IMG/VR virus record: IMGVR_UViG_2534682158_000010
Span: 1 to 30,878 of that record
Length of the DNA stretch: 30,878 nucleotides
Strand: one strand, 5' to 3'
Source of the DNA: a virus
Taxonomy: Duplodnaviria; Heunggongvirae; Uroviricota; Caudoviricetes
Each line of letters starts with the position of its first letter. Position 1 is the stretch's first letter. The translations under genes and the position numbers were made by a program. Below the pieces are notes generated by a model. That model ran no database searches and had not been told where the DNA came from. It worked only from the letters and a program-made list of their open reading frames with translations. This document shows positions 94 through 4,259 of the stretch, one piece after another.

Positions 94-190
94 AAGGTTG
101 CGCTACGTAAAATCTGCGAAATGTTGGCAGTGTTAGTGCTCCAGATTTCGCGTAGCGCACTTAGCACCACCAATCAATCAGAGGTGAAAA

Positions 191-412
191 ATGGGATATT
201 CAGCTGCTAAAGTGTCCACTCATATTGAGCTTGAGAAAAACCGTGGTTACTGGCGGGCAAAAGGGTTTGATCGTGATAGTTGTCAACTGTCATTATCGCG
301 CGGTGAAGAGAAAATAGAACGCACGCGCGGTCGCTGGCGTTTCTATGACGAGAACCATAAACAGGTAAAGGCAGAGCCGATCCTGTACACTTTACTTAAA
401 ACCATTATCTGA
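191..412 (+). CDS. Hypothetical small protein (73 aa) upstream of cre
   Basis: ATG preceded by GAGGTG at 6 nt spacing; ends 8 nt before cre; no recognisable motif. Confidence 0.4.
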   Translation: MGYSAAKVSTHIELEKNRGYWRAKGFDRDSCQLSLSRGEEKIERTRGRWRFYDENHKQVKAEPILYTLLKTII

Positions 413-1501: not shown

Positions 1502-1813
1502 ATGAGAAAGGATTTCAACATCGACGGAAAATATGTAGTGCTGTCTGTAAGCACTAATATTCAGTCGCCAGCCGTCATTGTCACTGTAAAGCTGAGCGAT
1601 AGAATGCCTGATATTGATTCAATATCCGTTGCGTTCCCTGTCAAAAGTATGCGTGGTGCTGAACATTTCGTGATGAATGCCACCGAGGGAGAAGCACGGC
1701 GCGGTTTTGCTAAAGTGATGTCTGAGTTTGGCGAATTTTTGGGGCACGTTGACAAAGCCCTCTCAATCAGTTCAGCAAGGTCCAAAGCGTTAACAGCTTC
1801 CATGATGAAATAA
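1502..1813 (+). CDS. Hypothetical protein (103 aa) in the position of a cre-associated gene
   Basis: Protein-like composition; weak RBS (GGTGA 3 nt from ATG); antisense ORF 1561..1875 is less protein-like. Confidence 0.45.
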   Translation: MRKDFNIDGKYVVLSVSTNIQSPAVIVTVKLSDRMPDIDSISVAFPVKSMRGAEHFVMNATEGEARRGFAKVMSEFGEFLGHVDKALSISSARSKALTASMMK

Positions 1814-1837
1814 AAAAAGCCTGGCAAGGAGCCAGGC
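1812..1837 (-). terminator. Intrinsic terminator for leftward transcription
   Basis: Hairpin GCCTGGC-AAGGA-GCCAGGC followed on the minus strand by a U7 tract; no U tract on the plus strand. Confidence 0.55.
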
Positions 1838-1943
1838 TGCACAAAAGAGCGGGTTTGTATTCCGCATCCAATCAATCAAGAAGGAGTATAGCACACAGGT
1901 ACTGAAGTGAAAAAATGTGATTCGCGATAAATAAACAACTTTA

Positions 1944-1967
1944 ATTGCTCTAATTTGTTGCTATAAT
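1944..1967 (+). promoter_or_regulatory. C1 operator-like 17-mer (ATTGCTCTAATTTGTTG) overlapping an extended -10 promoter (TGcTATAAT) upstream of ref
   Basis: 11/17 contiguous consensus match; perfect TATAAT at 1962-1967 with TG at -15/-14; C1 repression of ref is established for P1. Confidence 0.55.
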
Positions 1968-2026
1968 TGAGTCGCAGTTTTTGTCAACTACGAAGACGTT
2001 GCCATTACTTCACTCCTTGACATCAT

Positions 2027-2054
2027 AGGCGGCCATTAGGCCGCCTTTTTTTTG
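2027..2054 (+). terminator. Terminator-like hairpin plus T8 tract immediately upstream of the ref start codon
   Basis: AGGCGGCC-ATTA-GGCCGCCT followed by TTTTTTTT, ending 5 nt before ATG 2060; ref has no Shine-Dalgarno. Confidence 0.5.
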
Positions 2055-2059
2055 ACCAT

Positions 2060-2620
2060 ATGAAAACAATCGAACAAAAAATTGAACAGTGCCGCAAGTG
2101 GCAGAAGGCAGCCAGAGAACGAGCGATCGCTCGGCAACGGGAGAAGTTGGCTGATCCGGTCTGGCGAGAATCTCAATATCAGAAAATGCGGGATACTATC
2201 GACCGCCGTATCGCTAAACAGAAAGAGCGCCCACCAGCCAGCAAAACGCGGAAAAGCGCGGTAAAAATAAAATCTCGTGGCTTGAAGGGGAGAACACCAA
2301 CGGCGGAGGAACGGCGCATCGCCAATGCTCTTGGCACTCTCCCCTGCATTGCCTGCTATATGCATGGAGTAATATCTAATGAGGTGTCTCTGCACCATAT
2401 CGCCGGTCGTACCGCGCCGGGTTGTCATAAAAAGCAATTGCCACTTTGTAGATGGCACCACCAGCATGCAGCACCGGCTGAAGTAAGAGCAAAATACCCC
2501 TGGCTGGTCCCTGTTCATGCCGATGGTGTGGTTGGAGGCAAGAAAGAATTCACCCTGCTGAACAAGTCAGAGATGGAGTTACTGGCTGACGCCTATGAGA
2601 TGGCAAACATCATGCACTAA
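2060..2620 (+). CDS. ref: Ref, RecA-dependent HNH-family nuclease (recombination enhancement function)
   Basis: 186 aa, matching P1 Ref length as recalled; basic N-terminus and Cys/His cluster CIACYMHG...HHIAGR...CHKKQLPLCRWHH. Confidence 0.9.
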   Translation: MKTIEQKIEQCRKWQKAARERAIARQREKLADPVWRESQYQKMRDTIDRRIAKQKERPPASKTRKSAVKIKSRGLKGRTPTAEERRIANALGTLPCIACYMHGVISNEVSLHHIAGRTAPGCHKKQLPLCRWHHQHAAPAEVRAKYPWLVPVHADGVVGGKKEFTLLNKSEMELLADAYEMANIMH

Positions 2621-2648
2621 TAAATATATTATTTTTAATGATAAATGA

Positions 2649-2679
2649 TTGACAACTGACAAGTGACTTCAGTCAGAAT
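2649..2679 (+). promoter_or_regulatory. Composite promoter: -35 TTGACA, late-promoter-like element ACAAGTGACT, -10-like CAGAAT
   Basis: Same ACAAGTGA(C/T)T motif plus downstream hexamer is found upstream of prt and lyz; fits the dual (sigma70 plus late) promoter described for P1 mat, as recalled. Confidence 0.5.
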
Positions 2680-2809
2680 CATCACATGCCCGGTACGGAT
2701 GGATCCCTTTTCAAATATTCCATGGACGGCACAGTCTGAGTACCGGGCGCTACCTTCAGTTGTATTGCTAAGCCGCCGCTGGTGGCTTTTCTTTTTTGTA
2801 GGGGGCGCT

Positions 2810-3451
2810 ATGGATAAGAAAATATGCGTTGTTTCGATGAGCGTCGGCAAACCGGCGTCAATGACTGCTGCATGGATCAATAACGAGCTGATAATGGCTG
2901 AGCGGACCAGCTACCCTGAACGCCGCCGCGATATGGAACTCCAGCTGCTGCGCGAATTGCGAGAAAAAGAGGAAAAGGGTTTTATCGTGCTGGTGGAAGA
3001 GGAAAACAGCTTTATTACTGGTCGAGTTGGCCAGCGTGTAAGGTTGCGCGATCCCTTCATGAACGGCAGGCCGGTACTGATTGAAGCAATGCAGATTTAC
3101 AAGGAGCTGGAACGCCAGAAAGCGATCAAGTTACCGCGCAAGGAATCCGGCAAATACATCCTCCACCAAAGCATCTTCGATTCCGAACACGATAAAAAAG
3201 GCGATGAATTTTTCAACATCAACTGGAGCGAAATAACGACAGAGCATGTTCTGACGTTACTATGTTGCTTTGCGACGGAATACAACAACGTTGCCAGCGC
3301 CGACTACATCAGGGCAATGGCTGGAGAAGTTGAAGCCCGCCAGGAACCATCGTTACTAAGTCCACTTATTAACATAATTCTGGGTACCCAGACACTGGAA
3401 CAAAAAAAAGTGCCGAAAGGGGTATTAACAGGCAAGCATAATTATTTCTAA
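2810..3451 (+). CDS. Hypothetical late protein, possibly the particle-maturation (mat) homologue
   Basis: ATG at 2810 preceded by AGGGGG; the six-frame ORF nominally starts at GTG 2663 inside the promoter; no recognisable motif. Confidence 0.55.
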   Translation: MDKKICVVSMSVGKPASMTAAWINNELIMAERTSYPERRRDMELQLLRELREKEEKGFIVLVEEENSFITGRVGQRVRLRDPFMNGRPVLIEAMQIYKELERQKAIKLPRKESGKYILHQSIFDSEHDKKGDEFFNINWSEITTEHVLTLLCCFATEYNNVASADYIRAMAGEVEARQEPSLLSPLINIILGTQTLEQKKVPKGVLTGKHNYF

Positions 3452-3650: not shown

Positions 3651-4259
3651 ATGTCTAATACCTCGGCAAATGAAATTGTACCGCACTTACCGCTAATTTT
3701 CGAAAATGAAGCTAATGGGATTCTTCAGGATCTGGCCTATACTCCATCGCTTATGGGGTTGATGATGTTCCCGACAGAAGAGGAGCTGAAAGCAGCGAGA
3801 AGCTACATAATTAACGTTTTTGAAGAGTGTTACCGAGCCGGTCATTTGCGCATTATGGGCTTTACTAATGAAGAAAACTTGTTCGGATACGCCTTAATCT
3901 TCGGACATCCATCGGGAAATTTTCCGTTGTACTGTCATAAAATATATGTATATGAGCAATATCGTGGTAATGGACTTGGAAGTAATATACTGGCAGAAAT
4001 ACTTGCATTTCCAAATGAGGTCGCTTTGATTTGCCAGTCTGATTTGGTTCCTTTTTATGAATCAGCCGGAATGCACTTTAAAGGAAATTACACCACTCCA
4101 TCAGTCGCCAATTTCAAAAAAACTCGCGGCATGTATGAGGGGCTTTGTTTGATGAGCACTGAAAAAAATGCAAACTCTAATGGTGTACCTATATTCATGC
4201 TGAACGATAACGATATTGATAACATCATACAGGCTATCGCATCATCGGCACCACGATAA
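3651..4259 (+). CDS. GNAT-family N-acetyltransferase (202 aa), substrate unknown
   Basis: Acetyl-CoA binding motif YRGNGLGSNILAEIL and motif-B-like VPFYESAGMHFKG; gene and flanks visibly AT-rich relative to neighbours. Confidence 0.8.
   Translation: MSNTSANEIVPHLPLIFENEANGILQDLAYTPSLMGLMMFPTEEELKAARSYIINVFEECYRAGHLRIMGFTNEENLFGYALIFGHPSGNFPLYCHKIYVYEQYRGNGLGSNILAEILAFPNEVALICQSDLVPFYESAGMHFKGNYTTPSVANFKKTRGMYEGLCLMSTEKNANSNGVPIFMLNDNDIDNIIQAIASSAPR

Follow-up and report, generated by a model that had tools for sequence, protein, structure and literature searches.

A candidate short leftward RNA beside the C1-controlled ref promoter in the c8–ref spacer of a P1-type phage-plasmid

The DNA upstream of ref in P1-type phages contains a C1 operator-like site flanked by two hairpins with T-runs, which raises the question of what is transcribed from this region and in which direction. 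We addressed it in a viral sequence of 30,878 nt, hereafter the window. A preliminary description had placed the site between cre and ref and interpreted it as two face-to-face promoters centred on the operator, the leftward of which would yield a C1-controlled RNA of about 140 nt. The window belongs to a P1-type phage-plasmid. Bases 1400–2700 were 97.4% identical to bacteriophage P1, with 15 phage records reaching at least 80% coverage of this query, and the spacer DNA at 1790–2075 was 95.8% identical to P1. The gene order was cra (191–412), cre (420–1451), c8 (1502–1813, plus strand), and ref (2060–2620, plus strand), which encodes a RecA-dependent nuclease (Pfam RecA_dep_nuc, E = 5e-51). 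As judged from its sequence, the region is therefore the c8–ref intergenic control region of a P1-type phage-plasmid, and the neighbor on its left is c8 and not cre. The c8 stop codon (TAA, 1811–1813) overlaps the A-run of the left terminator.

Relatives of the window were gathered through C8 similarity in viral contigs (80 loci) and Ref similarity in genomes (3 loci), together with P1 and P7. After removal of duplicates, 57 usable spacers remained, and 46 distinct sequences spanned the whole of cre to ref. The three loci of the Ref-based genome scan were all close relatives. Distant C8 homologs, sought for covariation analysis, were not found: every match was at least 81% identical. We also drew a wider DNA sample by sequence pattern, in which nine of the pattern matches were unrelated DNA. 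Breakpoints near 1899–1901 in some relatives were considered as a recombination site and rejected, as they corresponded to Tn3-family insertions.

The rightward half of the region, comprising the operator, P2ref, the attenuator, and the SD-less ref start, is already published or annotated biology. In alignments with P1 and P7, the 17-mer at 1944–1960 (ATTGCTCTAATTTGTTG, plus strand) coincided with the operator annotated there as Oref, formerly Op1/Op2a. In this 17-bp asymmetric C1 operator the core ATTGCTCTAAT matched at 11 of 11 positions (1944–1954) and the 3' half was variable. The core pattern had four matches in the window against 0.07 expected, and the 11-nt core was nearly fixed in relatives. 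The 3' end of Oref is overlapped by the extended −10 element TGcTATAAT (1959–1967) of P2ref (1939–1967, plus strand), a sigma-70 promoter reading into ref with a weak, variable −35 near 1939–1945 and a predicted start near 1974. Its TG and TATAAT were nearly invariant in relatives. The P1 GenBank record AF234172 annotates P2ref (with a −10 hexamer corresponding to 1962–1967 of the window), Oref as a monovalent C1 operator, P1ref, and ref at the aligned positions, and the P7 record annotates the same operator. Both the operator-like 17-mer and the overlapping rightward promoter of the preliminary description are thus these annotated elements. Within the spacer, AF234172 annotates neither a terminator nor a leftward feature.

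The window and the P1 ref control region share the operator core, TGcTATAAT, the hairpin with T8, and the SD-less ref start. They differ mainly in the operator's 3' half (TTTGTTG in the window, TTGATTG in P1) and in about 14 nt upstream of the operator, and the window has one additional base before the ref ATG. C1 control of the variant operator is predicted from orthology with P1 ref. In P1, ref is C1-repressed and is induced 73-fold after C1 inactivation or in lytic growth, one ref promoter is occluded by the C1 site, and H-NS binds a CGATAAA motif in the 5' region of ref according to EMSA and ChIP (Ronayne et al. 2016, PMC4713147). The same nucleation motif occurred at 1925–1931. C1 bound at Oref would occlude P2ref, and the H-NS site would add host silencing to the control of ref.

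Between the P2ref start and the ref ATG (2060) lies a predicted intrinsic terminator or attenuator (2027–2053, plus strand, −17.1 kcal/mol). Its stem AGGCGGCC/GGCCGCCT (2027–2046, eight pairs, seven of them GC) closes an ATTA loop and is followed by T8 (2046–2053). The ref leader folds into this terminator with z = −3.70. The stem was fixed in relatives while the loop varied (ATTA, GAAA, TAAA, ATCA, GCAA), and in one relative (L008) a C-to-T change still allowed G.U pairing, though solely on the plus strand. In about ten relatives without ref, a convergent ORF6N/KilAC antirepressor-like gene adjoins the kept right hairpin. The gap between T8 and the ref start, previously given as 5 nt, is 6 nt (GACCAT). 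The hairpin and T8 themselves were as described, as was the missing SD: GGA, GAG, and AGG were all absent from the 20 nt before the ATG. Transcripts from P2ref would meet this strong terminator before they reach the ref ATG, so that ref would also be controlled by attenuation. The hairpin and T-run correspond to the attenuator of a 1988 paper by Windle, Laufer & Hays (J Bacteriol 170:4881), whose title, as given in the reference list of PMC4713147, speaks of "attenuator-antiterminator" control of ref.

An alternative to the ref terminator was a weak 6-bp pairing of GUUGCC (1998–2003) with the 5' arm (2028–2033), at −12.7 vs −24.3 kcal/mol, and the segment 1998–2003 varied in relatives. A 5' hairpin of the leader (1974–2002) was rejected, as it was not kept in divergent relatives. 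The leader also contained a conserved 15-nt island, GTCAACTACGAAGAC (1983–1997, plus strand), with a nucleotide diversity (pi) of 0.003–0.011 between diverged flanks and no second copy in the window. The second promoter, P1ref (TTGCCA-16-CATCAT with TG, 1999–2026, plus strand; hexamers at 1999–2004 and 2021–2026), was found in the consensus scan and is a predicted promoter in the P1 annotation. Its start would fall near 2033, inside the terminator hairpin, and its transcripts would therefore escape termination. Since the operator, P2ref, the attenuator, and the SD-less ref start match the P1 annotation and the 1988 paper, this well-supported content adds nothing new. The observations of the preliminary description were largely accurate and its rightward reading was correct, but that reading was already known.

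The left side of the region is where the known control of ref leaves something to explain. A second predicted intrinsic terminator occupied 1812–1838 on the minus strand (−16.2 kcal/mol), with stem AGCCTGGC/GCCAGGCT (1838–1818; eight pairs, six of them GC), a 5-nt loop, and a run of T6–7 (1817–1812). The plus-strand hairpin was equally stable (−16.1 kcal/mol) and continued into GCACAAAAG, which has no T-run. Because the T-run is found on the minus strand only, the element would stop leftward transcription, at the c8 stop codon. The stem was invariant in 57 relatives, with changes confined to the loop, and the change G1831A, carried by L236/L247, leaves a U.G pair in the minus-strand stem and a C x A mismatch in the plus-strand one. 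Strict criteria yielded only four terminators on both strands of the window, against none in 40 shuffles, and two of the four bracket the Oref region with T-runs pointing outward. The opposing terminators of the preliminary description were therefore recovered by the consensus scan, and the left one does face leftward. The promoter that it had been assigned to did not fare as well.

That promoter, on the minus strand at 1960–1987, consists of TTGACA (1987–1982) and TATAGC (1965–1960) with a 16-nt spacer. It overlaps Oref and would fire in the absence of C1, face-to-face with P2ref, to produce a non-coding RNA of about 142 nt ending at the left terminator. The strings were present at these positions, the −35 hexamer is perfect, with a 16-nt spacer, and the terminator is correctly oriented. 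The 142-nt RNA would hold both repeat halves complementary to cra (1868–1878 and 1904–1914, discussed below) and folded with z = −2.44. Against this, in 55 relatives the −10 read TATAGC, TATAAC, TATATC, or TATGGC, with C at −7 in 55/55 and never T. The consensus scan of the window did not list the site because its second hexamer lacks the final T, and the −35 decays to TTGACT in at least nine relatives. The score of 8.7 was common by chance in a rough, approximate promoter PWM: 219 sites in the window scored at least 8, about one per 280 nt. The site would also compete with the consensus extended −10 of the much stronger P2ref for the same DNA. The first 37 nt or so of the RNA would come from the hypervariable segment 1917–1953, which includes the stretch with the highest variability in the region (1917–1943, pi about 0.12), and variants in 1904–1914 do not keep the pairing with cra. 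We judge this promoter unlikely to be functional, and a C1-controlled 142-nt transcript from it improbable.

A better candidate lay closer to the left terminator. At 1885–1913 on the minus strand, the consensus scan listed a candidate sigma-70 promoter with −35 TTTTCA (1913–1908), a 17-nt spacer, and an extended −10 TGcTATACT (1893–1885; TG followed by TATACT at 1890–1885), predicted to start near 1877. Its score of 13.7 equaled that of P2ref by the same approximate PWM. It was kept in 55/55 relatives with a median of 13.7 and a minimum of 11.3, compared with a median of 11.4 for P2ref, and the −10 was invariant with most substitutions in the 17-nt spacer. The operator pattern scan of the window found no operator-like site overlapping it. 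Since this promoter lies outside the operator, it and P2ref would be divergent and not face-to-face as previously proposed. The left terminator most likely does not serve the operator-centred promoter and instead ends a leftward transcript from 1913–1885.

Such a transcript, begun at TTTTCA-17-TGcTATACT, would run from 1877 to about 1812. This candidate non-coding RNA of about 66 nt (1812–1877, minus strand) is shorter than the 140 nt formerly proposed and not obviously under C1 control, as its promoter is divergent from P2ref and has no overlapping C1 operator. It folded at −23.2 kcal/mol (z = −3.25) into eight free 5' nucleotides, a small hairpin GCGG-N9-CCGC (1850–1866), a U-rich linker (1849–1839), and the terminator hairpin with its U-run, a layout that would have the shape of a base-pairing sRNA. 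In the small hairpin, changes in L026 and L110 were compatible with the minus-strand structure only and that in L006 with the plus strand only, which was not significant. The wider pattern-based sample added a few more single-sided changes, and the minus:plus ratio of 3:1 for the two core stems in that sample was suggestive but likewise not significant. Covariation on the minus-strand structure was not significant in the wider sample, where shuffles matched the observed values in 130–218 of 500 cases. An Rfam scan at permissive E-values gave best matches of 20–25 bits vs thresholds of 41–75, the best match of the candidate being SorX (22.6 bits vs a cut-off of 46.6). Literature searches, some of them for stretches of the sequence itself, turned up no description of a transcript in the c8–ref spacer, and no ncRNA was annotated at the block in complete E. 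coli genomes. Small ORFs did not account for the block: the plus strand held just ATG-TGA, and those on the minus strand were rejected, as they read across the terminator and lose their frame through length polymorphism of the A-run.

The putative RNA and its promoter together make up a conserved block at 1812–1916. Diversity within it was 0.003–0.023, compared with 0.129 at c8 third codon positions and about 0.12 at 1917–1943. The block was present in 615 of 5,426 complete E. coli genomes (~11%), where it was plasmid-borne in 613 of 622 places, and all but one of 617 E. coli records (616) had an identity of at least 95%. Low diversity is not confined to the block, since the tract already begins within c8, at about 1765. 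Part of cre had equally low synonymous diversity, which weakens low diversity as proof of selection, and the block ranked near the 8th percentile of 105-nt windows for diversity. Hitch-hiking or a mosaic history, rather than selection, could lie behind it.

Within the block, the 11-mer CCAATCAATCA on the plus strand (1868–1878; repeat families D7/D8) showed no variation at all (pi = 0.000). An RNA starting near 1877 would carry its complement, 5'-GAUUGAUUGG, at the very 5' end. A complete P1 genome contained three copies of CCAATCAATCA, all of them immediately followed by an SD: one belongs to cra, one to the spacer block, and one to the pmgT leader. The cra copy (170–180) forms part of the cra translation start region CCAATCAATCA-GAGGTGAAAAA-TG (170–193, plus strand), which could serve as a pairing target and is itself paralogous to the spacer block. 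In the pmgT leader, the operator OpmgT/Op88 and a hairpin-TTT lie upstream of the copy, and a hydrophobic ORF of 28 aa that lacks annotation follows it. The invariant 5' end GAUUGAUUGG could pair with the CCAAUCAAUCA box just 5' of the SDs of cra and of the small ORF in the pmgT leader. In target ranking, the start region of cra came first among those of 93 annotated P1 genes (−17.8 kcal/mol) and second among those of 162 ORFs in the window. We rejected this ranking as stand-alone evidence, as shuffled seeds did equally well in 53/300 cases (18%). The cra site was invariant in relatives and thus offered no compensatory change between seed and target. The cra site was also 21/22 identical to 1868–1878 plus 1904–1914, with the two halves split by 25 nt in the spacer. 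The 1904–1914 half would belong to the promoter rather than to the transcript, and the resemblance to cra may therefore simply be that of a start region that was duplicated and disrupted. The CCAATCAATCA repeats may equally be paralogous start-region cassettes, of which the spacer copy is disrupted by an insertion. We place less trust in cra and the pmgT-leader ORF as targets than in the RNA itself.

Two further readings dispense with a leftward regulatory RNA. One holds that there is no dedicated leftward transcript: the left hairpin would form or stabilize the 3' end of the c8 mRNA, or act as a passive insulator against stray leftward transcription into c8 and cre, the block would be a relic start cassette (CCAATCAATCA-SD-...ATG) kept alike by recent common ancestry, and the 1913–1885 promoter would be fortuitous or weak. 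This agrees with the equal stability of the hairpin on the plus strand (−16.1 kcal/mol), with the paralogy of the block to the cra and pmgT-leader start regions, where the insertion falls between SD and ATG, with low diversity that begins as early as about 1765 in c8 and recurs in cre, and with the missing covariation and non-significant target statistics. However, the hairpin is a terminator for the minus strand only, because five to nine A's precede it on the plus strand and no T-run follows. All 55 relatives keep an extended −10 promoter of P2ref grade, placed 47 nt upstream of the hairpin and altered mostly in its spacer, and the DNA on either side of the block is the most variable in the region. 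We regard an explanation without a leftward RNA as unlikely, yet a serious contender.

The other reading makes the leftward unit an mRNA that mirrors ref, in which the 1913–1885 promoter and an attenuating terminator precede an SD-less AUG (1803) and an 80-aa ORF (1803–1564) antisense to c8. The layout is indeed ref-like, with a hairpin, a U-run, a gap of 6–8 nt, and an AUG without SD (8 nt after the U-run here), and the ORF was open in 46/46 unique relatives. That openness is an expected by-product of c8, since the third codon positions of the two frames coincide. Diversity in the antisense frame was higher at position 2 (0.063) than at position 1 (0.022), the reverse of a coding pattern, whereas the c8 frame had 0.022 at position 2 and 0.063 at position 1, with conservative substitutions. 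Substitutions in the antisense ORF were non-conservative (mean BLOSUM62 −0.42 vs +0.24 for c8), there was no Pfam match, and in a longer antisense ORF the variable length of the A-run shifted the frame of the upstream part. Both the diversity by codon position and the quality of the substitutions favor c8, and we disfavor the antisense ORF as very improbable.

A short leftward unit is thus the best explanation of the outward-facing left terminator. The left terminator and the adjoining conserved block may mark a short, unannotated leftward RNA, and we put the existence of an sRNA-like unit here at slightly below an even chance to even. For the region as a whole, the best explanation combines the known control of ref with a leftward sRNA-like transcript of about 66 nt from 1913–1885, a combination we hold to be about equally likely to be right or wrong. 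Rather doubtful is the full proposal of a P1-family sRNA gene of about 66 nt, divergent from the ref promoter and independent of C1, whose seed would pair with CCAAUCAAUCA at cra, in the cre operon, and at a small ORF for a membrane peptide in the C1-controlled pmgT leader, making it a second trans antisense regulator beside c4. The analysis corrects the view of the operator, as the operator-centred leftward promoter is not credible, and it offers a lead, an sRNA candidate made up of a leftward terminator, an extended −10 promoter kept in relatives, and a seed without variation. P1 is among the most used model phages, and the block is carried on plasmids in about 11% of complete E. coli genomes. 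If true, the cre/cra recombination module and the leader of a lytic operon would be linked to an RNA regulator.

Known phage RNAs offer several points of comparison. In lambda, OOP RNA is a cis-antisense RNA to cII, with which it shares the 3' end of the gene. Like OOP, the candidate would be a short, terminator-ended RNA convergent to a lysogeny-establishment gene (cII in lambda, c8 here), but it would stop at the c8 stop codon, where the overlap amounts to the U-run only. In size (about 60–70 nt), predicted promoter of its own, single-stranded 5' seed, U-rich linker, and Rho-independent terminator with U-run, it would resemble the Hfq-dependent prophage sRNAs of E. coli, such as DicF and those of EHEC/EPEC prophages (PMC5069750, PMC4104026). 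It differs from them in having no sequence or Rfam relationship and in its location on a P1-type plasmid prophage. The c4 RNA is a short phage RNA that acts in trans through short complementary boxes at the ribosome-binding region, with the boxes repeated in the genome. Its function is proven, and a single transcript gives rise to both c4, by processing, and its target. The candidate, by contrast, is a prediction from sequence with its own predicted promoter and terminator and one seed of 10–12 nt. What it shares with c4, the antisense RNA of the P1 immI operon (Citron & Schuster 1990, as cited in PMC8201110), is the repetition of its box, as the candidate RNA gene, the cra start region, and the pmgT leader each hold a copy of CCAATCAATCA.

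Sequence diversity was unevenly distributed across the cre-ref segment in the relatives. The most variable stretches were positions 1700-1760, in the body of c8, and 1917-1943, the ~25 nt immediately 5' of the C1 operator Oref where the -35 region of the rightward promoter P2ref lies (pi 0.12-0.19). The conserved block between them (1812-1916, in the c8-ref spacer) contrasted sharply with both in its low diversity. Within the ref leader, a 15-nt island, GTCAACTACGAAGAC (1983-1997), was retained where the flanking DNA diverged, including in relatives that lack ref, and no further copies of it were found in the window.

Approximately ten relatives were missing ref (L004, L010, L017, L026, L027, L044, L047, L054, L074, and L082). 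These contained a convergent gene of 352-370 aa with ORF6N and KilAC antirepressor domains (~2050-3160 in each locus), which terminates at the right terminator of the ref leader that these relatives keep. The ref-less loci therefore carry an orphan unit of ~80 nt, consisting of Oref, P2ref, leader, and terminator, with no gene downstream.

Another exact copy of the C1 operator core, ATTGCTCTAATTCTTTG, was located at 1469-1485, 17 nt 5' of the c8 ATG. This core and Oref were alike in orientation and downstream context, forming a 21-nt repeat with 86% identity. P1 instead has ATTGCTATAAT at the equivalent site, which can be read as a TGcTATAAT extended -10, and the P1 record has no operator or promoter annotation there. 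The relatives were divided at this site, some having the ATTGCTCTAATTCTTTG form and others the ATTGCTATAAT form.

Antisense to c8, an 80-aa ORF (1564-1803, minus strand) was open in 46/46 unique relatives; codon statistics speak against it as a coding sequence. Its AUG is 8 nt past the U-run of the left terminator, an arrangement that mirrors ref.

Several relatives had Tn3-family transposon ends (GGGGTCGTCTCAGAAAACGG... and GGGGTCGTTTGCGGGAGGGG...) inserted in the c8-ref spacer, after position 1901 in L073, after 1899 in L034, and near 2010 in L023. P7 carries Tn3 within the 3'-terminal part of ref. The c8-ref spacer appears to be a recurrent site of insertion.

The C1-controlled pmgT leader of P1 (L253) contained an unannotated 28-aa hydrophobic ORF, MNTAFKIIMAAIYFWLFSITFGGIVAHG, at 303-389 of that locus (~84392-84478 of AF234172). 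This ORF has a good SD, lies directly 3' of a hairpin-TTT and the CCAATCAATCA box, and has a stop codon that overlaps the pmgT SD. A Pfam search with it returned no match. An unrelated group of viral contigs (L090, L117, L138, L142, L154, and L171) had CAATCAATCGGGACGGAGTATAG in common and showed no likeness to the P1 spacer beyond it; there, CAATCAATCGGGACGGAGTATAG may be another start region composed of a box and an SD.

Downstream of mat, the window contained a plus-strand ORF of 202 aa (3651-4259) resembling GNAT acetyltransferases. P1 has res at this position, on the minus strand, and the restriction-modification module of the window thus differs from that of P1.
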